Below the pieces are notes generated by a model. The model made no database searches. It was not told the origin of the DNA and was given only the letters and a program-made list of their open reading frames with translations. This document shows positions 4,180-61,984 of a stretch of 64,000 nucleotides of DNA, piece after piece. Every line of letters begins with the position of its first letter. Position 1 is the first letter of the stretch. The translations under genes and the position numbers were made by a program. This DNA comes from Candidatus Pacearchaeota archaeon (lineage in GTDB: Archaea > Nanobdellota > Nanobdellia > UBA10117 > JAFCGI01): contig JAFCGI010000003.1 of the NCBI GenBank assembly GCA_017608235.1, forward strand, positions 44,146 through 108,145. Direction: 5' to 3'.

Positions 4180-4252
4180 GGGGTCATAGCACAATCAGGC
4201 ACTGCGGCCGGCTCCAGACCGGCTGATCTGGGTTCAAATCCCAGTGACCCCA
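4180..4252 (+). tRNA. tRNA-Trp (anticodon CCA), no intron
   Basis: Manual cloverleaf. Acceptor GGGGTCA pairs with TGACCCC. U8. Anticodon stem GCCGG/CCGGC with loop CUCCAGA. T-arm CTGGG-TTCAAAT-CCCAG. Discriminator A. GC-rich island in AT-rich DNA. Confidence 0.8.
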
Positions 4253-4455: not shown

Positions 4456-5730
4456 ATGAAACAAGGGTTAACTAAAATACTTTTAAGTATACTAAGTATA
4501 TTTCTGATAACTGGATTAACCTTACCAATTACTTCTACCTCTGTTCTAGCTAACAATGAAGATGTTAGCGAATTTGGAATTGAAGTAGCATATAATCCAG
4601 ATCTAGAAAAATTAAATCCAGGCGATCATATAAATATGGAAATTGAGATTGAAAAAGGAGATGTATCTTATGACAAGCTGCATCACTCAAAATTCATTGC
4701 TTGGATTGAAGATGAAGACGGAAAGGATCTAACAGATGAAGCTCAAGTAGGAACATTTACATTAAGAAATGAAGCAGAAGATAAAATAGAAACTATATCT
4801 TTAACAATTCCAAAAGATATAGATACAAGCAAGGAATATATATTAATTATAAATCTAGAAGCAGATGAGCTAGATGAACCAGTTGAAATAGACAGACAAG
4901 TATTATCTATCGAAAAAGAAGATTATAGCCTAATAATTGATGAAGCAAATCTAAGACAATCTGGTGAAAATGCTATTACTGCTGAAATAAAGGTCACAAA
5001 CAATGGTAACGAGGATCAAGAAAATATTATGATTAAAGTATCATCTGCAGATTTAAATATTGTTGAAACTTATGGACCTCTTACATTAGAAGCAGACGAA
5101 ACTAATATGAGATATTATGGCATAAATCTGCCAAAAGATATAGAATTAGGAACTCATAAGGTTTCTATTAAAGTATACAGCAACGATGCATATGATATAG
5201 TTACTAGAGAAGTAAGAATTTCTAACTATAATTCAATATCTACATATGATAGTGATGGCATAGCAAACGCAGATGCAAAATATATCACTGCTCAAAAGAA
5301 TGCAAAAAATATATTTTCTATAGAAGTAACAAACAAAGAATCTAATATAAGAACTATTGGATTTGAAGTAGCAGGTACAAATGCATGGGCAGATGTAAGC
5401 ATCGATGGACCAGTTACACTAGATGCTGGAGAAACCAGAAAATTAGATCTTCAAATAATTCCAAATTCAGATGCAACAGGATCTAATCCATTAACAATTT
5501 ACATAAAAGAAAATGGAGAAATCATAGATTCTATAACATATAATGTAGAAATCACTGGTGCTGCAAATGCAGAACTACCAGATCTAGGACTTACATTAGA
5601 TGAAGCAACAATAACTTCAGGCTTAAAATGGCTGTTTGGCGTATTAATTGTTATAGCAGTTATTTTGTTATCTGTCTGGATGTGGAAGAATAATGAAGAA
5701 AAAGATAAAGGAGAGCAAGTTTACTACTAA
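4456..5730 (+). CDS. Secreted surface protein with a C-terminal TM anchor
   Basis: Signal peptide MKQGLTKILLSILSIFLITGLTLPITSTSVLA. Ig/CARDB-like repeated modules (VTNNGNEDQENIMIKV, EVTNKESNIRTIGFEV). C-terminal TM LFGVLIVIAVILLSVWMW. The track ORF uses a TTG at 4441. Confidence 0.55.
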   Translation: MKQGLTKILLSILSIFLITGLTLPITSTSVLANNEDVSEFGIEVAYNPDLEKLNPGDHINMEIEIEKGDVSYDKLHHSKFIAWIEDEDGKDLTDEAQVGTFTLRNEAEDKIETISLTIPKDIDTSKEYILIINLEADELDEPVEIDRQVLSIEKEDYSLIIDEANLRQSGENAITAEIKVTNNGNEDQENIMIKVSSADLNIVETYGPLTLEADETNMRYYGINLPKDIELGTHKVSIKVYSNDAYDIVTREVRISNYNSISTYDSDGIANADAKYITAQKNAKNIFSIEVTNKESNIRTIGFEVAGTNAWADVSIDGPVTLDAGETRKLDLQIIPNSDATGSNPLTIYIKENGEIIDSITYNVEITGAANAELPDLGLTLDEATITSGLKWLFGVLIVIAVILLSVWMWKNNEEKDKGEQVYY

Positions 5731-5804
5731 TTGCTCTTTTTCTTTTTAATTTATTTTTTAATTATCTTATAATATAGTAATCAAAAATCAACAATAATTT
5801 GGAA

Positions 5805-8800
5805 ATGGCCGCTAAAAAAGGACATCTAAGCAGCATAGTTTTTTTTATATTAACTATATTTTTAGCTCCTTTTTTATCACATACTGCATATGCCTTTGAG
5901 GCAGTTTCTGATGACATTAGTACATATACTTGTCCCAGTAATACTAACATATTCATAATATCTGTTAAAAATGCAGATGTATCAGATAGTTACACCGTAA
6001 CATTGTCTGGAAGTGCAGCAAAATGGGCCGTAGCAGCTCCCTCAGGTTTCGTTTTAGGTCCACAAAAATCAAAGGATATATATGTTTATATAACTCCAAG
6101 CAGCCTTGCACTTCCAGGCACTTATGATCTTATAATAACAATAAATGCTGAAAATTCTGGAACAAAACAAATAAATCACAAAATATATGTTAATGATTGC
6201 CATAAAATATCATTAACATCAGTACAATCCTATATTAAGACATGTGCTTGCACGCTTTCTAGTTTTGATCTAAATTTAGCAAATAATGGTCAATATAGAG
6301 AATTATATGATCTTTCTTTATCAGGAAGCGGTGCAAAATGGGCTAGTCTATCTCAAGAAGTAACCATGATAGACAAGGGCGAAGATAAAGATCTAAAATT
6401 ATATGTTGCAGCTCCTTGTGATAAAAAAGGTAAATACGATATAAATGTAATCGCAAAATCAAGAGATAGCAATACATTCGCAAATAAAAACCTTGAATTT
6501 GAAATAGAACCTTGTTATAATTATGAAGCAGTTCCTGCAGTAAATTTCTATGAATTCTGTGAACATTCCCAAGTTAAGATTCCTATAGATATTAAAAATA
6601 CTGGAGTTAGAAATAATACATTCAAATTAAGCCTAACTGGACCTGCTTGGTCTGCACTAGAAAAATCATCTCTTGATCTTCTCCCAGATCAACAAAACCA
6701 ATCAAAGCTAATATTATTTCCAGATTATGGAGTTCAAGGAAACTATAAACTTGTTGTTAATATAGAAGATGAGCTTACTAAAAACAAAAAATCTCTTCCT
6801 ATAGACATTAAAGTAAAGAAATGTCATGATATTGATCTAGAAATCGGAACTACAGAAGATATTCTTTGCCCTGGCTCAGAAGAAATCTATGAATTAAGTC
6901 TAGAAAATAAGGGAGAATTTAATGATGAATATATTTTATCAGTAGACGGAGCAAGTTGGGTAAAATTAGAAAAAACATTAGTAAGTCTTGATGCTGGTAA
7001 CACTGAAAAAATAAATCTTATTGCAAATCCTAGTACAATCGACATTCCTGCAGACTATAATTTAGATATTTTTGCTAGATCTAAACACTCTCCTTTGATA
7101 TATGATCATGTACCATTAGACATAACTCTAAAATCTAATCTAAATTGTTTTGGAGTTGAACTATCTGCACAACAAAATAAAATAGAAGTTCCATATGGAG
7201 AAGGATCACTGATTCCCATAACCATTCAAAATAAAGGACAAGAAGAAAAAGAATTTCTATTAGATATTTCTGGAAACGGTGCTAGTTATGTACAACTAAA
7301 CCCATCAACCATTAAGATAAAACCAGAAAAACTAGAAACAGTCCACGCCTATATAGCAGTTCCAAAAGAAGCATTACTTGGAGAATATAAAGTAACTATA
7401 ACTGCAAGAACCAAAGATAATTATCTATCAAGCTCAGACTCAATCCAAATAAAAGTAATTGAACCACAAAAGTCAACCCAGACAGATAATACTACACAAG
7501 AAAAACCATCAAATTCTTTTTTAGTATCATTAATTTCATCTTTTAGCAAACTAGGAAATAAAATATCGGGTTTCTTTGCAGGAATTTTCACAAGCGAACC
7601 ACAAATCCCAGACACAGAAGAACCTAAAGAAACTTCATCAGAAAAATCTGAAGCTTCTGAGCAAGAACAAAAACAAGAAACAATTGAACTTGAAACTCAA
7701 ATTCTTGAAGAACAACAATCAGAAGAAAAAGAACCTGAAGAACAAGAATCAGAAATCACTGAGCCAGAAGTTCAAGAACAAGAGCCAAAAATAACAGAAG
7801 AGCTAAACAACACTGAACAAGAGCAAGAAAAGGTAAATGAATCAGAATCTATAGAACCTGAAGTTAACAAATCAGAATTAATAGAGCCTGAAGTTAACAA
7901 ATCAGAGACCTATAAGTCAGAAGCAAATGAATTAGAATCTATAGAACCAAAAGCAAATAATACAGAGCAGCAAAAAATAAATGAAACCAAAACAGAACAA
8001 CCAGATACTAATAAATCAAAATCTCAAGAACCAGAAGAACCAGAAGAACCAGAAGAACCTCAAGAACCAGAAGAACCAGAAGAACCAGAAGAACCAGAAG
8101 AACCAGAAGAACAAAAATCTGAAGAGAAAGAACCAGAGCCAATAATAGAAGTAAAAGAAGAATTTATTGAGTTATCAGAATTTACAAAGTCAACATATCA
8201 TATAGAAGGAAGCACTACAAAATTTATATATAATGATCAAGAACATACAGCAACTCTAGACACTGTAGATGAAACATCTATTATATTAATTATAGAATCT
8301 GATCCAATCTATCTAGACATGGATGTTGGAGATACAAAACAAGTAGATCTTGATAATGATAGCATAAATGATCTTGAAGTAACTCTAAGAGGCATAAAAG
8401 ATGGAGTTGCAGATGTTTCTTATAAAAAATTAGTCCCTATATCAGATACAGAAGAATCTCAGAAATCTCAAGAATCAGAAAAAGAGCCAATGAATAATAA
8501 TCCAGCATTCTTAGCAATTACAGGAATGTTTGCAAATATAGGAACATCAGCTAACAATGTATATAATACTATATTATCAAATAATTTCATAGATGAATAC
8601 AAATACTTTATTTTAGCAGCTATAATAATCTTGATTGGAATTATACTTATTAATCTATATAGTAGAAAATTCACAGACTATCTTGAAGAAGAGTTTGATG
8701 ATCAACTTGAATCAAAGGAAAAACCAAAAAAGATTAAACCTAAACCTAAATCTAAGGTACCAAAAGAAAAGAAATCTTTTTGGACAAAATTTAATGATTT

Positions 8801-9578
8801 CTTAGAGGATGAAGAAGCTAGAGAAAGGAAACAGAAAGAAGAACAAGAAGAAATTAAAAGAAAAATACAAAAAGATCTGGAAGAATCAAGAATAAAAAAA
8901 GAAGCTGCTAAAGAACCAGCTCAAGAAAACATAGAAGAATCAGAAAGCAAAGTAGAAGAAAACATAGAAGAATCAGAAAGCAAAGTAGAAGTAATTAAAG
9001 AATTAAAAGAAGTTAAAGAATTAGAAAAAACTAAGGAAATCCTTGAAGAAAAACCAAAAGAATTTGAATCAGAACCAAATATTATTGATAGTTCTGAAGA
9101 ACCAATTAAGGAAAAACCAAAACCTGAGGAAAAACAAGAACAAACACAAGAAGAAAAACAAGAACAAAAACAAGAACAAACACAAGAAGAAAAACAAGAA
9201 GAAAAACAAGAACCAATATCTGAGATTAAAGAAAAAAAGAAAAGTTTTTGGCAAAAGTTTAATGAGTTCTTAGAAGAGCCAGAAGATCAAGAACAAGCAT
9301 CCCAAGAACCAGAAAAACCAAAACCTGAAGAGAAAAAAGAACCAGAAAAACCAGAACAATTCAAAGAAGAAAAAGAAGACAGAATTATGACAAACATTCC
9401 TGAGGAAATCACTCAAGAACCAGAAAAACCAATAGAAGAGCAGAAACAAGAACCAGAAAAAACAGAATTAGCTAAGAAACCAAAAGAAAAGAAATCTTTT
9501 TGGAAAAAGTTCAATGATTTCCTAGAAGAATCTCCAGAACCTGAAGAGTCAAAGTATAAAGAGGAAAAGAAAGATTAA
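5805..9578 (+). CDS. Giant (1258-aa) surface protein with repeated about 110-aa Cys-pair modules, TM segments, an acidic E/P/K/Q low-complexity tract and a triplicated KKSFWxKFNDFLEE motif
   Basis: Signal peptide IVFFILTIFLAPFLSHTAYA. Six or more similar modules (…LSGSAAKWA…, …LSGSGAKWAS…, …LTGPAWSAL…, …VDGASWVKL…, …ISGNGASYVQL…). EPEEPEEPEEP-rich tract encoded by GAACCAGAA DNA repeats at 8030..8112. TM YFILAAIIILIGIILINLY. A C-terminal charged tail holds three copies of KEKKSFW(T/Q/K)KFN(D/E)FLEE. The track ORF starts at TTG 5799. Confidence 0.55.
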   Translation: MAAKKGHLSSIVFFILTIFLAPFLSHTAYAFEAVSDDISTYTCPSNTNIFIISVKNADVSDSYTVTLSGSAAKWAVAAPSGFVLGPQKSKDIYVYITPSSLALPGTYDLIITINAENSGTKQINHKIYVNDCHKISLTSVQSYIKTCACTLSSFDLNLANNGQYRELYDLSLSGSGAKWASLSQEVTMIDKGEDKDLKLYVAAPCDKKGKYDINVIAKSRDSNTFANKNLEFEIEPCYNYEAVPAVNFYEFCEHSQVKIPIDIKNTGVRNNTFKLSLTGPAWSALEKSSLDLLPDQQNQSKLILFPDYGVQGNYKLVVNIEDELTKNKKSLPIDIKVKKCHDIDLEIGTTEDILCPGSEEIYELSLENKGEFNDEYILSVDGASWVKLEKTLVSLDAGNTEKINLIANPSTIDIPADYNLDIFARSKHSPLIYDHVPLDITLKSNLNCFGVELSAQQNKIEVPYGEGSLIPITIQNKGQEEKEFLLDISGNGASYVQLNPSTIKIKPEKLETVHAYIAVPKEALLGEYKVTITARTKDNYLSSSDSIQIKVIEPQKSTQTDNTTQEKPSNSFLVSLISSFSKLGNKISGFFAGIFTSEPQIPDTEEPKETSSEKSEASEQEQKQETIELETQILEEQQSEEKEPEEQESEITEPEVQEQEPKITEELNNTEQEQEKVNESESIEPEVNKSELIEPEVNKSETYKSEANELESIEPKANNTEQQKINETKTEQPDTNKSKSQEPEEPEEPEEPQEPEEPEEPEEPEEPEEQKSEEKEPEPIIEVKEEFIELSEFTKSTYHIEGSTTKFIYNDQEHTATLDTVDETSIILIIESDPIYLDMDVGDTKQVDLDNDSINDLEVTLRGIKDGVADVSYKKLVPISDTEESQKSQESEKEPMNNNPAFLAITGMFANIGTSANNVYNTILSNNFIDEYKYFILAAIIILIGIILINLYSRKFTDYLEEEFDDQLESKEKPKKIKPKPKSKVPKEKKSFWTKFNDFLEDEEARERKQKEEQEEIKRKIQKDLEESRIKKEAAKEPAQENIEESESKVEENIEESESKVEVIKELKEVKELEKTKEILEEKPKEFESEPNIIDSSEEPIKEKPKPEEKQEQTQEEKQEQKQEQTQEEKQEEKQEPISEIKEKKKSFWQKFNEFLEEPEDQEQASQEPEKPKPEEKKEPEKPEQFKEEKEDRIMTNIPEEITQEPEKPIEEQKQEPEKTELAKKPKEKKSFWKKFNDFLEESPEPEESKYKEEKKD

Positions 9579-16666: not shown

Positions 16667-16668
16667 AA

Positions 16669-16756
16669 CTTATTCTTAATCTTAAACTTATCACAAATAT
16701 AAATATCATTAGCTTATTCTTAATTTTAAACTTATCACAAACATAAATATCATTAG
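16669..16756. repeat. Tandem duplication, 2 x 44 bp with 2 mismatches, upstream of the Lrp/AsnC regulator gene
   Basis: CTTATTCTTAATCTTAAACTTATCACAAATATAAATATCATTAG is immediately repeated. Confidence 0.8.
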
Positions 16757-16840
16757 ATTTCTATAGTGCGTAAAATAAGCAAAATATTTTAAAACATAGC
16801 TTATTATTATATATACACTGTATAAAAATGCGTAATTTGT

Positions 16841-17314
16841 ATGATGAATAAACAAATAGACCAAAAAGACAAGAAGATACTAAAAACCCTTTTTGAAGAT
16901 AGTAGAGCAACGATCGCAGAGATAGCAACAAAGACAGGAATTAGAAGAGACTCTGTTTCTAGAAGGCTAAACAGGCTAAGAAAAGATAAGATAATAACAG
17001 GATTTATCCCATTAGTAGATCCTGCTGCACTAGGTTATCCTAATGTAGCTATCTTGCTATTCAAGCTTAAAACCAGAAATGACGCTGATAAAAAGAAATT
17101 CTTGAAACAACTAGTTTCCAATAAGTTTGTATTTCGTATTTCAAAGCTAATTGGTAAGTATGACTTCCAATGCTCAATAGCATACGAAAATACAACTCAC
17201 CTAGACAGCATAGTTGAAGAGATCAAAACATACATTCCAAACATCGTTGATGAGTTTGAACTGTATCAGGTAGTTGACAATCCAAAAACAGAGAGGATTG
17301 ACGACCTAATATAA
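16841..17314 (+). CDS. Lrp/AsnC-family transcriptional regulator
   Basis: N-terminal HTH DKKILKTLFEDSRATIAEIATKTGIRRDSVSRRLNRL. C-terminal RAM domain. Length 157 aa. Confidence 0.8.
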   Translation: MMNKQIDQKDKKILKTLFEDSRATIAEIATKTGIRRDSVSRRLNRLRKDKIITGFIPLVDPAALGYPNVAILLFKLKTRNDADKKKFLKQLVSNKFVFRISKLIGKYDFQCSIAYENTTHLDSIVEEIKTYIPNIVDEFELYQVVDNPKTERIDDLI

Positions 17315-58602: not shown

Positions 58603-59118
58603 ATGGGAGCAATAATAGGTGAATCCCTAAAAAAAATAAATGCAGTAAGAGAAAAATTAGAACCAAAATTAAAAATTGCTAACAATATCGTAATAAAAGA
58701 TGTTTATATAAAAGACTTATTTGTGGGCGCGCAAGCTGAAAAAGTACTAGCCTTCGATTATCTTTTTACTTCAAATTATGGAGAAACCACAGGCCATATT
58801 AACATAGAAGGATCTGTATTTTATAGAGATACTCAAGATAAGTTAAATAAAATAGTTGAATCCTGGAAAACCAATCAAAATCTAAGTCAAGAAATAGCTC
58901 TTCCTGTATTGAATAAAGCATTAGAAGCAAGTCAAGTTCAGGCAATAAATATAGCAACCCAACTTAAACTACCAATGCCTGTAAGAATGCCTGTTTTCAA
59001 AGCAGGAGGCTCCACTCAAGAAGTAAAAGGTGCAGAAGATACACAAGAAGTAGAAGCTCCAGCTCCAGAAACCCATAAAGAAGGCGGAGAAGCACCAGCT
59101 GAACAACCTTCAGAGTAA
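58603..59118 (+). CDS. Hypothetical protein
   Basis: 171 aa. RBS AAAGGAGATGA. Acidic Pro/Ala/Glu-rich tail. Confidence 0.4.
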   Translation: MGAIIGESLKKINAVREKLEPKLKIANNIVIKDVYIKDLFVGAQAEKVLAFDYLFTSNYGETTGHINIEGSVFYRDTQDKLNKIVESWKTNQNLSQEIALPVLNKALEASQVQAINIATQLKLPMPVRMPVFKAGGSTQEVKGAEDTQEVEAPAPETHKEGGEAPAEQPSE

Positions 59119-59121
59119 AGG

Positions 59122-59814
59122 ATGAGTGATCCTGTACTTAAAGATATAAAAGAAGCTTTTAGGGACCTTGAGCAAGATTTTGAGAGCAAAGAAAACTCAA
59201 AAAAAGGCCCAGGGAAGCTCATTTTATCACTTTTTATTATCTTTATTTTCTTTTTTAGTTTTATTCCTTATTACTCTCTAAAGCTTGACCCGCATCCTGA
59301 TTTGCAAGTTATAGAGGATTTTAAGCTTACATCTCAAGAAAAAGAGCTGTTTAGAGATAATATAGCTCATTTTTCGTCTGTAAAGCAGGCTGCTAACAAA
59401 GTAGACCCCTCACTTTATCGACCATTTACAACAAGATTAGTGACTACAGCATGTCCATTTAAGTCAAAAACATGCTACGCAAAGGCTATTTACCTATATG
59501 TAAGAGATAATATCTATTATGTCTCAGATCCAGACTTCGAATACGTGCAAAATCCTGCTGAAACTCTCACTTCTGGAGGAGATGATTGCGACGGCAAAGC
59601 CCTTTTATTGGCTACAATGCTTGAATCTATAGGGATTGATGCTGATATAGGTCTCACTTTTTCCCATGCTTTTGTTCGAGCTCAAATTCCAGAAGCACTC
59701 ACAAAATATAAACATCAGGGATCTGACTATGTCTGGCTGGATTCAACCTCTCACTTTTCCTTTGGGTCTCACAACATAAAAGACTCTGAAATCAGAGGTT
59801 TTATCGAAATTTAA
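59122..59814 (+). CDS. Transglutaminase-like cysteine protease-fold protein with an N-terminal TM segment
   Basis: GGDDCDGKALLLATMLESIGIDAD (Cys core), SHAFVRAQI (His) and WLDST (Asp) match the transglutaminase-like triad spacing. Confidence 0.55.
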   Translation: MSDPVLKDIKEAFRDLEQDFESKENSKKGPGKLILSLFIIFIFFFSFIPYYSLKLDPHPDLQVIEDFKLTSQEKELFRDNIAHFSSVKQAANKVDPSLYRPFTTRLVTTACPFKSKTCYAKAIYLYVRDNIYYVSDPDFEYVQNPAETLTSGGDDCDGKALLLATMLESIGIDADIGLTFSHAFVRAQIPEALTKYKHQGSDYVWLDSTSHFSFGSHNIKDSEIRGFIEI

Positions 59815-59862
59815 TTTTTCAATTTTATCTCAACTTTTCCTCTCAAATTTCCTTATTTTTAG

Positions 59863-60023
59863 CGTTATAACGTTATAACGCAGGCTTTACGCGTAAAGAA
59901 GTAACGTTATAACGCGTTATAACGCATAATATTAAATAAGGGATAAGTAAGCCATATTTACGATAACTAACCGTTATAACGCACGACATAACGTTATAAC
60001 GTATAAGATTTACCGTTATAACG
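59863..60023. repeat. Array of seven perfect copies of the 10-bp palindrome CGTTATAACG plus the palindrome TTTACGCGTAAA, immediately upstream of the wHTH gene
   Basis: Copies at 59863, 59871 (overlapping), 59905, 59915, 59972, 59992 and 60014. A degenerate copy CGATAACTAACCG is also present. Confidence 0.85.
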
Positions 60024-60059
60024 CAAGATTTTTATATCTTAAAACTCTAATTATTAGTA

Positions 60060-60623
60060 ATGTTTAAAAAAATAAGTTTTGCTTTAGGTATGAAGAATAA
60101 ATGGGATAAACTTATAGATGAGATAAATAAAGGATTCAGACTAACAAAGCAAGACATGATTTCTAATTTTTTTGAAGTTAGACAAAATCGAGAATATATA
60201 CTTAAACAACATAAACATATTAATTTACTCACAAATGAGATAATGAAGTTTAGACATGAAATAGAAGATCTAAAGAAAATCGCATTACATCGCCCTCAAT
60301 CTTATCAAGAAGATTATGAAATAAGCTCACCAACGCCTGTACTTAAAGAATCTATGGCAGAACTTAAGAAAACAATACCGCAAGCTAAATATCAAACAAT
60401 AACAAACTCAGAAAGAGCTGTTCTTTCAGTTTTATTTGATGCTGAAATGCCTCTAAGCTATGAAGTTATAGCACATAGATTAAATATCAGTCCAAACAGT
60501 GCCAAAGTACATATCAATTCCCTAAAGCGAAAAGGCTATCCTTTAGAAACGTTCCAAGGACCTAAAAAATCAAAACTTTATGCAATAAGAAATACAGAAA
60601 AAATTAGACAATTTTATGGTTAA
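60060..60623 (+). CDS. Winged-helix DNA-binding protein (hypothetical regulator or site-binding protein)
   Basis: C-terminal wHTH ERAVLSVLFDAEMPLSYEVIAHRLNISPNSAKVHINSLKRKGYPLE. N-terminal coiled-coil. Confidence 0.5.
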   Translation: MFKKISFALGMKNKWDKLIDEINKGFRLTKQDMISNFFEVRQNREYILKQHKHINLLTNEIMKFRHEIEDLKKIALHRPQSYQEDYEISSPTPVLKESMAELKKTIPQAKYQTITNSERAVLSVLFDAEMPLSYEVIAHRLNISPNSAKVHINSLKRKGYPLETFQGPKKSKLYAIRNTEKIRQFYG

Positions 60624-60696
60624 TATTTATAATTAAAAACTAAAACATATAATTATTAAATAACTAAAAGAAATAATCATAAATCAAAAGATATGA

Positions 60697-61272
60697 TCAG
60701 ATCATTTCTTGAATTTTTTTCTTATATTCCTCCTCAATATCTATTTGACTTGGAGTACCATAAACATCAATAGTAGTCTTAATGCTGCTATGCCCTACTA
60801 TTTGTTGAACATATTGCAAAGGCATGCCTGCCTTAAGAGCATTTCTTACAAAACTATGTCTAAACAAATGTGGGTTTATCTTATTTCTTCCCGGATTTGG
60901 ATGATTTACTCCTGCCCTTTTAGCACATTTGCATACTATCTCATTAATTTGTTTCAAACTTAATGGTCCAGGATAACTTTTAGCACTCGTGAATACATAT
61001 CCCTGTTTCCTATTCCCAAGAAGTTGCTTAATATCCATAATAGTTAAATTATCTATTGGCACAGTTCTAGGCTTAGCCCCTTTTCCTTCTTTAATATAAA
61101 TATGATTTTTTTCAAAATCCACATTTTCAATTTTCAAATTTCTGAGTTCAGCTCTTCTAATCCCAGTTCTAGAAAAAACCTCAATAATCACCCGATCACG
61201 GAATGTTGGAGCATTTTCTATTATGCTTTTGATCTCATCAGAACTTAAACAATAAGTACTCTCTTTGGCCAT
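60697..61272 (-). CDS. Tyrosine recombinase/integrase, catalytic domain only (about 191 aa)
   Basis: R…K…HLFRHSFVRNAL…VGHSSIKTTIDVYG (R-K-HxxR-H-Y). ATG at 61272 preceded by TGGAGA RBS; the track ORF extends to 61302. Confidence 0.8.
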   Translation of the reverse strand: MAKESTYCLSSDEIKSIIENAPTFRDRVIIEVFSRTGIRRAELRNLKIENVDFEKNHIYIKEGKGAKPRTVPIDNLTIMDIKQLLGNRKQGYVFTSAKSYPGPLSLKQINEIVCKCAKRAGVNHPNPGRNKINPHLFRHSFVRNALKAGMPLQYVQQIVGHSSIKTTIDVYGTPSQIDIEEEYKKKIQEMI

Positions 61273-61290
61273 ATTTATTCTCCAATGTAA

Positions 61291-61385
61291 TTTACGTAAC
61301 ACTTCTATAAAAAGATTACGTTAACGTAACTTTTTACCTTTTTTACGTAACAGAATAGCCAAAATGTAACCTTTTCGTTACTTTT
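61291..61385. repeat. Cluster of TTACGTAAC / GTTAACGTAAC palindromic motifs in the recombinase promoter region
   Basis: TTTACGTAAC (61291), GATTACGTTAACGTAAC (61315) and TTTTACGTAAC (61342). Inverted half-sites GTAACC…CGTTAC at 61365..61381. Confidence 0.75.
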
Positions 61386-61984
61386 ATCCTTTTAGTTAGC
61401 AGATCTAGCAAAATATCTATAAATCAAAAGGAATTAAAGAAATAATTAAAAGATTTAATCAAAAACTAAAATATGTAAGATAGATATACAATCAAAACTT
61501 TTAATCAAAGATTAAAATATTTTATCTTAAAAATTTTGAATCTAACTCTTTAAACATAGTTTGTTTTTGGTCTTCAGTATTATTATGATGTATAATATAT
61601 GAAAAATCATAATCCCAAACTATTTTTCCCTTTTTATAATTTTAGGATTTTCATAATCAAAAGGACTATAATATTTTCCATAAAACTCATCTCTAATCAT
61701 ATCTGAAGATAGTCTTAGAAAGTCATAATTAGAAATAATTTATTTCAAGAATTATTAGGAAAGAAATATTGATTAGAACATTAAAACACATATAGATATT
61801 TCTTTTATTGTAATAAAGAAATTTTAAAAAAAGAAAAATAAATATTATTTACCAATCTATACTTATAAAGTTTTCAAATATAAAAATTTTACAAATTTAT
61901 AATATAAAAATTCAAAAACATAAAAATAAGGAAATTAAGATTTCAAAATATATTTATACCATAGTCTTCTAATAGTAAAAAGTA

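Follow-up and report, generated by a model that had tools for sequence, protein, structure and literature searches.

The subject of this analysis is a 64,000-nucleotide (nt) stretch of the genome of Candidatus Pacearchaeota archaeon (contig JAFCGI010000003.1), hereafter referred to as the window. Two convergent genes in it, with stop codons 73 nt apart, encode a coiled-coil winged helix-turn-helix (wHTH) protein and a tyrosine recombinase that consists of the catalytic domain only, termed mini-Xer here. The locus is, in our opinion, probably a chromosomal Xer/dif-type site-specific resolution locus of a DPANN archaeon, in which two separate protein-site pairs lie tail to tail. The reading draws on the anatomy, conservation, protein-site covariation and synteny of the locus; since relatives keep the layout, a chromosome-maintenance locus is favored over a mobile element. 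A first-pass annotation of the window had named a mobile-element core and a site-specific resolution locus as candidates. The latter describes the locus best, as the recombinase is closest to archaeal XerA and a single-copy dif-like core is present upstream of its gene. The same annotation placed the two genes divergently, with related palindromes in the recombinase promoter; short boxes are indeed found 5′ of that gene, but the orientation is convergent.

Mini-Xer (191 residues; 60697-61272, minus strand) was characterized by its Pfam match, its homologues and a structure model. The catalytic domain PF00589 spans residues 9-171 with an E-value of 7.7e-33, the N-terminal domain is absent, and the predicted structure is a single domain. 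A search of 5.8 billion proteins retrieved more than 50 homologues (39-71% identity), all of 189-217 residues, which bears out the earlier observation that a core-binding domain is lacking; full-length XerA of neighboring lineages carries a Phage_int_SAM_4 N-terminal domain that mini-Xer does not have. All catalytic residues are kept (R39, K64, H135, R138, H161 and Y171), and the R-K-H-R-H-Y set is invariant across 31 family members. Mini-Xer is nearest to archaeal XerA by both sequence profile and fold. The family profile matches the XerA structures of Pyrococcus abyssi (4a8e, E 1.4e-37) and Thermoplasma acidophilum (5hxy, E 9.4e-32) in the PDB, and a Foldseek search with the model ranks 4a8e best (TM-score 0.81), followed by 5hxy, XerH and IntI. 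Among species representatives, the archaeal hosts are Pacearchaeota, Aenigmatarchaeota and unclassified archaea (loci L007-L020), while bacterial members, at 38-47% identity, occur in Zixibacteria, Ignavibacteria, Acetothermia and others (L021-L035).

The second line of evidence is a set of GTWAC/TTACGTAAC boxes 5′ of the recombinase gene, in its promoter on the far side from the wHTH gene (61273-61400). The region holds two copies of TTACGTAA (61292, 61343) and three of ACGTAAC (61294, 61324, 61345), a number reached in just 2 of 100 shuffles; GTWAC boxes start at 61296, 61326, 61347, 61366 and 61377, and a degenerate ATTAC at 61317. Alignment of 16 archaeal loci delineates a conserved box block that includes the recombinase promoter (61292-61381, minus strand). 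The boxes stand at fixed offsets from the ATG (-98, -79, -67, -47, -36 and -17), the last two on either side of a TATA box. About 110 nt before the ATG are conserved as DNA in these loci, whereas the proteins are only 50-70% identical. The block of the window is 81% identical over 80 nt to that of the Pacearchaeota contig L003. The layout recurs in bacterial members as an inverted box pair, a promoter and then one or two further boxes, the box sequences being lineage-specific (GGACGT, GGTCATC, GTGCAAT, GGCACA, TGGGAA, GGCCC). Because box sequences co-vary with recombinase lineage, the recombinase itself is presumably their reader, and the GTWAC boxes would constitute the site of mini-Xer. The TATA-like box (61305-61314) is flanked on one side by boxes 5 and 4 with their spacer (61315-30, ATTACGTTAACGTAAC) and on the other by box 6 (61296-61300); this arrangement, at 61305-61330 on the minus strand for the TATA box with boxes 5 and 4, is a predicted autoregulatory operator.

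Within the block lies Site I (61345-61372), a dif-like core of 11-6-11 geometry that reads AGGTTACATTT-TGGCTA-TTCTGTTACGT on the recombinase strand. Site I is single-copy in every mini-Xer locus and in the whole window, in which no second copy, inverted or direct, was found at up to 7 mismatches. In relatives the first two boxes form a unit of the same geometry with a TGTATA or TGGATA center, as in ACGTTACAGAA-TGTATA-TTCTGTAACTT of L011. One locus, L018 on contig JANQNF010000046, is informative as to the position of strand exchange. Its two mini-Xer genes diverge from a 4.5-kb segment containing an open reading frame of 895 codons, and the inner ends of the segment carry a 58-nt perfect inverted repeat (1271-1328 and 5855-5912 of that locus), each arm of which ends on precisely the final base of the Site I hexamer TGGATA; beyond it the copies are unrelated. 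The segment looks like an invertible segment or a recombination footprint, and the homology breakpoint points, if indirectly, to Site I as the crossover point.

The third line of evidence concerns the relation to xerA and dif. In related DPANN loci with xerA, dif (AGTTCGTTTAA-TGTATA-TTATACGAACT) is a near-perfect 11-6-11 palindrome 35-60 nt 5′ of the xerA ATG, with a center that we take to match that of E. coli dif. Farther 5′, these loci contain TTACAATATTGTAA palindromes and an element, ATTAAAACTTTTAATAAAAAATTAAAAT, to which an AT-rich palindromic element of the window (AATCAAAACTTTTAATCAAAGATTAAAAT; 61490-61518, no strand) is homologous, 25 of 29 positions being matched. The AT-rich element is conserved about 120-145 nt 5′ of Site I in the window and 5′ of dif in the xerA loci; in a joint alignment, dif and Site I share columns, 3′ of a common AAAACTTTTAAT...ATTAAAAT element. 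Relatives have ORB-like CAATATTG palindromes 5′ of xer genes; the window has none. Individual loci differ in what they retain: L004 has an intact xerA together with mini-Xer and half a dif alone 5′ of xerA; L001 has an intact mini-Xer and a decayed xerA of which residues 149-268 only are left; the window and L003 have mini-Xer without xerA within the DNA available. Since mini-Xer and Site I hold the position that xerA and dif have in related genomes, they appear to have displaced the latter in situ. The xerA pseudogene of L001 (8809-9167, frameshift at 9015) is 2.2 kb from the intact mini-recombinase gene.

The other protein-site pair begins with seven perfect 10-bp palindromes, CGTTATAACG, at 59863-60023 (no strand; extended core TAACGTTATAACG). 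The copies start at 59863, 59871, 59905, 59915, 59972, 59992 and 60014; they are the only ones in the window, against 0 expected from shuffles, and no further copies with one mismatch were found there. A variant palindrome, TTTACGCGTAAA, with half-sites TTACG.CGTAA (59886-59897, no strand), is located within the array and nowhere else in the 64 kb; it resembles the TTACG/TTAACG repeats beside a wHTH homologue in locus L124. The palindrome cluster reported at first pass is thus confirmed, and it is unique to this locus in the window. It is the candidate cognate cluster of the adjacent wHTH protein. A TATA-like box, TTTTTATAT (60029-60037, plus strand), is the putative promoter element of the wHTH gene; the last palindrome is separated from it by 5 nt and lies at the position of the TFB-recognition element (BRE), while the distance of about 23 nt from the box to the ATG implies a leaderless mRNA.

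The wHTH protein (187 residues; 60060-60623, plus strand) was characterized by a homologue scan, a Pfam scan and an AlphaFold model with a pLDDT of 89.8, built on 36 homologues. From N- to C-terminus, the model comprises a 75-residue helix (the coiled coil), a disordered linker and an ArsR/MarR-type winged helix (residues 116-186) with three helices and a β-hairpin wing. Foldseek matched it to CzrA, SmtB and MepR at a root-mean-square deviation of 2.2-2.9 Å over about 72 residues; Pfam gave matches to helix-turn-helix (HTH) families, all of them under the curated cut-offs.

A word-seeded search retrieved only the wHTH protein itself, while a full HMMER scan of 1.84 billion representatives yielded 57 distant homologues, every one with a coiled-coil N-terminus and a conserved C-terminal wHTH. 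Four loci of the family, including the window, could be examined. In the window, 14 TATAACG half-sites lie 5′ of the gene and 2 others in the rest of the 64 kb. In L086, which encodes the closest homologue (40% identity), all 16 half-sites lie just 3′ of the gene (1953-2237), and in L123 (60% identity in the wHTH), 13 follow the gene closely (4755-4975) and a further 3 fall within its 3′ end. L124, with a more distant homologue, has 10-bp TTAACGTAAA repeats 5′ of the gene. Clusters of CGTTATAACG/TATAACG therefore accompany the family in three genomes (window, L086 and L123). Within the short flanks available, no recombinase gene was found in L086, L123 or L124. L086 carries arrays of two types, namely a GTGTTAAAC-type array at 186-255, 5′ of the 294-residue gene that precedes the wHTH gene, and the TATAACG-type array 3′ of the latter. 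Paired CGTTATAACG copies no more than 30 nt apart, mostly as the 20-mer CGTTATAACGCGTTATAACG, also occur in 85 viral contigs of IMG/VR (L205-L284).

The association of such modules with xer genes is best seen in a sister wHTH family, A4, the profile of which recovered 33 loci from a metagenome scan. A GTGTTTAAC/AACACGTG array lies directly 5′ of the gene in nearly all of them, and a convergent tyrosine recombinase gene follows immediately 3′ in 19 of the 33; when the count is confined to the 20 loci that extend 1.2 kb or more beyond the gene, 13 have a convergent xer. The recombinases linked to A4 are two-domain XerA proteins of 266-269 residues. One A4 locus is found midway in a 788-kb contig, Ga0233437_1000005, at 414.5-423.0 kb, which argues for a chromosomal setting. 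Homologues of two genes that flank the array in the window, a 171-residue gene and a transglutaminase-like gene (58603-59814, plus strand), are often present near A4 loci, so that synteny with the array-plus-wHTH module and/or xerA is shared with relatives. The pairing of wHTH protein and tyrosine recombinase suggested at first pass accordingly gains support from the convergent gene order that many DPANN loci conserve.

Two relatives are particularly instructive. In L088, a homologue of the 171-residue gene is followed by a transglutaminase-like gene (51% identical to that immediately left of the array in the window), a GTGTTTAAC-type array and a gene for a 158-residue coiled-coil wHTH protein, with no recombinase gene after it. 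The first-pass annotation had held that relatives of identical content lacking both the recombinase and the palindromes would speak against mobility; L088 has the same flank and a wHTH gene and is free of the recombinase, but palindromes, of a different sequence, are present, a mixed outcome. The wHTH protein of L088 is 40% identical to a 183-residue protein of L003, a locus that mirrors the window with AT-rich DNA, a GTWAC block, a mini-recombinase gene, a coiled-coil wHTH gene in convergent orientation and eight arrayed copies of GTTWAAC. The window wHTH protein was also compared with the HTH neighbors of other mini-recombinase loci, and homology was rejected, BLASTP and HMM comparisons both being negative; the wHTH-recombinase link is thus not a family-level rule of mini-Xer.

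From these observations we infer which protein binds which site, what the core resolves and what the array does. Mini-Xer would bind the GTWAC boxes just 5′ of its own gene, two of which, with the 6-bp center, would form Site I, where strand exchange would resolve replicon dimers. Further boxes around the TATA box would provide autorepression and cooperative binding, and the latter may compensate for the missing clamp domain. The coiled-coil wHTH protein would bind the CGTTATAACG palindromes as a dimer, in an array that overlaps its own promoter. Simple autoregulation fits the window and A4, in which the array reaches the promoter, but not L086 and L123, in which the array is 3′ of the gene. 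Since the cluster stays beside the gene whether 5′ or 3′ and the A4 array is found beside xerA/dif, the array most likely acts in cis as a chromosomal site of an architectural or centromere-like kind, any autoregulation being secondary, rather than as an accessory to recombinase catalysis.

It should be noted that several observations weigh against reading the locus as a resolution locus with two protein-site pairs. The distribution of mini-Xer is sporadic (about 15 archaeal species representatives), two copies are present in L018 and at least three in one bacterial metagenome-assembled genome (MAG); housekeeping Xer proteins, by contrast, are one per genome and broadly distributed. The arms of Site I in the window are complementary at 6 of 11 positions, compared with 8-10 of 11 in the loci of many relatives. 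The window covers 64 kb of the genome, and a full-length xerA with a separate dif may lie elsewhere. With respect to the wHTH partner, members of the window's wHTH family in other loci do not adjoin a recombinase gene, and A4 is weakly linked to that family (hhalign probability 26%, wHTH part only). Moreover, the 33 A4 loci are a redundant sample with many closely related populations, amounting to about 9 lineages with xer and 5 without.

An alternative that we consider rather unlikely is that the array serves as a replication origin or as a centromere and the wHTH protein as the corresponding initiator or centromere-binding protein, with no more than a neighboring recombinase gene. As regards the array, it overlaps the preferred reading. 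The cluster lies in cis with the gene on either side and is the only one in 64 kb, mcm (2.3 kb) and an OB-fold gene are located within 2-4 kb, and very AT-rich DNA is adjacent to the site cluster in L123 and occurs at 61.4-62.0 kb in the window. Clustered sites beside the gene of a binding protein, as expected of a centromere, were found in the window, L086, L123 and the A4 family; cis linkage on either side, a single cluster per region and the coiled coil give the module a possible resemblance to centromere-like or architectural sites. However, no Orc1/Cdc6 gene is present among the proteins scanned, and no motor NTPase gene (ParA, ParM, TubZ, SegA) was found within about 5 kb or in related loci. 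The array itself is not AT-rich (37% GC at 59-60 kb), the GC skew across the window has no clear turning point there, and adjacency to xer recurs too often to ignore.

We regard as unlikely the proposal, also made at first pass, that the locus is the core of an integrated mobile element (plasmid, virus or insertion-sequence-like), with the recombinase as integrase, the array as an iteron or partition site and the AT-rich DNA at 61.4-62.0 kb as origin. In its favor, the distribution of the mini-recombinase is patchy, and conservation between Pacearchaeota and Aenigmatarchaeota is no lower in the upstream DNA than in the protein. At least three copies, with cargo that varies, are present in one bacterial MAG, and toxin-antitoxin genes adjoin some mini-Xer loci. 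A perfect 16-nt inverted repeat (59846-59861 and 61921-61936) moreover brackets the module. As element ends, the latter was rejected: the window has three repeats of this kind where 0.85 are expected and simulations give up to 3, and homologous loci do not have this one. Imperfect direct repeats that flank the recombinase (60620-60692 and 61411-61520) were likewise set aside as low-complexity similarity, since their sub-blocks are differently ordered and the DNA is 77% AT. The search for att-like direct repeats around the module found none, and there is no second Site I in the 64 kb. The sole tRNA of the window is at 4180, 16 related loci contain none, and Rfam and tRNA scans gave nothing relevant. 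Replication, capsid and transfer genes are absent. The window has the flank synteny and the AAAACTTTTAAT element in common with xerA/dif loci, which lie on chromosomal contigs as long as 788 kb. In a viral collection of 2.9 million contigs, mini-Xer family members do not exceed 34% identity and A4-type wHTH proteins are absent. In an empty-site comparison, the nearest flank homologues were 47-51% identical, too distant to be decisive. Given the patchy distribution, the well-conserved upstream DNA and the multi-copy bacterial MAG, the mini-Xer family may nevertheless move between genomes, despite the conserved chromosomal slot of the window copy.

It is very unlikely that the short recombinase is something other than a resolvase, be it an invertase of the FimB/FimE type, a relaxase like MpsA of SGI1 or a repressor like MrpR of SPbeta. 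Its size is near that of FimB and FimE, about 200 residues. It matches Pfam MrpR_C_cat weakly, and L018 has two inverted sites around its 4.5-kb segment. MpsA is a tyrosine-recombinase-like relaxase with its DNA-binding part in a separate protein and oriT nearby (PMC6414798). An invertase would be at odds with the lack of a second site in the window, and a relaxase with the lack of conjugation genes; all catalytic residues are kept in mini-Xer, whereas recombinase function is lost in MrpR (PMC10516654), and XerA proteins are the closest by sequence and fold.

Least tenable of all, and to be considered highly improbable, is the first-pass idea that one protein, wHTH or recombinase, reads both motif sets through a shared CGTTA half-site: CGTTA/TAACG is present in both motifs and GTT..AAC-type palindromes occur near some mini-recombinase genes (L003, L009, L011, L013), but the GTWAC boxes co-vary with the recombinase and accompany it in 16 archaeal loci, none of which has the CGTTATAACG array and 11 of which have no GTT..AAC-type palindrome near the gene, bacterial boxes differ, TATAACG arrays follow the wHTH family where no recombinase is seen (L086, L123), and L003 keeps the GTWAC boxes together with a different array (GTTWAAC) and a different wHTH protein, so that the common half-site is no sign of a common reader. 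Nor does the wHTH protein appear to be the substitute for the core-binding domain that it was suggested to be, as most related partners are full-length XerA and most mini-recombinase loci have no such wHTH protein.

Mini-Xer loci have further recurrent features. L021, L022, L024 and L036 are bacterial MAG loci, the last three from one assembly (CAZTBA01). In a bacterial MAG, at least three copies of the mini-recombinase with its upstream site, 86-95% identical as DNA, form cassette-like units; each copy precedes a different cargo gene (84, 134 or 367 residues), and the copies share a downstream block of 110-165 nt with hairpin potential. In Aenigmatarchaeota (L008-L011, L013), a conserved non-coding block 3′ of the mini-recombinase gene consists of a single or double GTTTAAAC palindrome, a stretch of some 170 nt with an A+T content above 85% and then AAAGTGAGACTT..GAAATTTGAC..ATAGCGATTTTT. 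Rfam gave no match for this block; ATAGCGATTTTT is also found 5′ of the recombinase in L003 and L004, and its block is absent from the window. A small conserved winged-helix protein of 95-122 residues (motif FLR[DE]KP..LL....Y..L.KEA.C) recurs near xer in distant DPANN lineages: it is encoded 5′ of the mini-recombinase in L008-L011, L013, L014 and L016, and near xerA in L094, L097, L098 and L105, as well as at L001:2932-3273. No homologue of it was found in the window.

The rest of the window has the gene content of a low-GC archaeal chromosome, including mcm, aminoacyl-tRNA synthetases, CTP synthase, aspartate carbamoyltransferase and a proteasome-type ATPase. In the 23%-GC spacer 5′ of the recombinase gene, short broken reading frames on the minus strand (61540-61740, e.g., MIRDEFYGKYYSPFDYENPKIIK) may be remnants of a decayed gene. 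A weak match to the A4 profile at 16841-17314 proved to be an ordinary Lrp/AsnC-like regulator; 5′ of this gene, at 16667-16760, is a tandem duplication of about 47 nt (cttattcttaat.ttaaacttatcacaaa.ataaatatcattag). Dense AGAACCA-containing repeats (7943-8131) fall within an open reading frame of 1259 codons (5799-9578).

Comparison with the XerA/dif systems of Pyrococcus abyssi, Thermoplasma acidophilum and haloarchaea shows a like catalytic domain, a single-copy, dif-like 11-6-11 core with a TGTATA-like center, a putative site in non-coding DNA directly 5′ of the recombinase gene and the same slot in related DPANN loci. Mini-Xer differs from XerA in having no N-terminal core-binding (SAM-like) domain and in its patchy occurrence, sometimes in two or more copies, and Site I differs from dif in its four or five extra boxes, which are at fixed spacing and overlap the promoter. 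XerS/difSL and XerH/difH are single-recombinase systems with the site beside the gene, and the resolution sites of Tn4430 (TnpI/IRS) and Tn3 (res) are 5′ of their own recombinase genes. In these systems, a core and accessory motifs over the promoter join resolution to autoregulation, as is proposed for Site I and its boxes; the XerS, XerH, TnpI and Tn3 enzymes, unlike mini-Xer, have DNA-binding domains besides the catalytic domain. There are precedents for a catalytic module acting on a nearby site without a fused core-binding domain, namely MpsA of SGI1 (PMC6414798) and the catalytic, C-terminal half of SSV1 integrase, which binds its target and recombines weakly (PMC8371274). MpsA has been proposed to be a relaxase that depends on MpsB, a second protein similar to a core-binding domain (PMC6414798), whereas no small partner is conserved in all mini-Xer loci. 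The half-length SSV1 integrase was produced by truncation in an experiment; mini-Xer is natural.

For the wHTH protein and its array, the systems to be compared are MatP/matS, RacA/ram, ParB/parS, TubR/tubC and AspA. In these, as with the archaeal TrmBL2, a winged-helix or HTH protein, often with a coiled coil, sits on a cluster of short palindromes near dif or near its own gene, and the cluster forms a higher-order complex. The window wHTH protein differs from all of them in that no homology beyond the generic wHTH fold was found and there is no adjacent motor ATPase gene. The closest archaeal case is provided by Thermococcus kodakarensis, in which DNA around dif bound by TrmBL2, a TrmB-like wHTH protein, forms a boundary for SMC, the chromosome-condensing complex (PMC11840125). 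TrmBL2 occupies many loci with low sequence specificity, in contrast to the tight array of perfect 10-bp palindromes in the window. In haloarchaea, dif lies 5′ of the xerA operon (PMC11840125), and inverted repeats flanking archaeal dif have been proposed to be sites of partner proteins (PMC2958812).

These comparisons lead to a broader proposal, which we advance tentatively as a less likely extension of the preferred reading: the locus could be a chromosome-maintenance hub of DPANN archaea. In such a hub, the wHTH protein on its array would form a centromere-like or roadblock complex at dif, by which Xer recombination is positioned or licensed, and would in this way be the archaeal equivalent of FtsK/MatP or have a role like that of TrmBL2. 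The other part of the hub would be the catalytic-only Xer, which in some lineages would have taken the place of XerA and would make up for the absent core-binding clamp by cooperative binding to its five or six short boxes.

In a 2021 survey of tyrosine recombinases, every member had at least a core-binding and a catalytic domain (PMC8138268). The conserved and apparently active catalytic-only family of about 190 residues described here would be the smallest natural member of the superfamily; in archaea and bacteria alike, its gene adjoins its own co-evolving site. Site recognition and synapsis in the absence of a clamp could be studied in this compact system. How archaeal Xer is controlled without FtsK and what assembles around dif are considered open questions (PMC2958812, PMC11840125). 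A coiled-coil wHTH protein with an array beside xerA/dif in uncultivated DPANN archaea is a testable candidate partner for archaeal Xer with defined DNA sites. If the hub proposal is true, the locus would represent a previously undescribed two-part chromosome-maintenance system of DPANN archaea.

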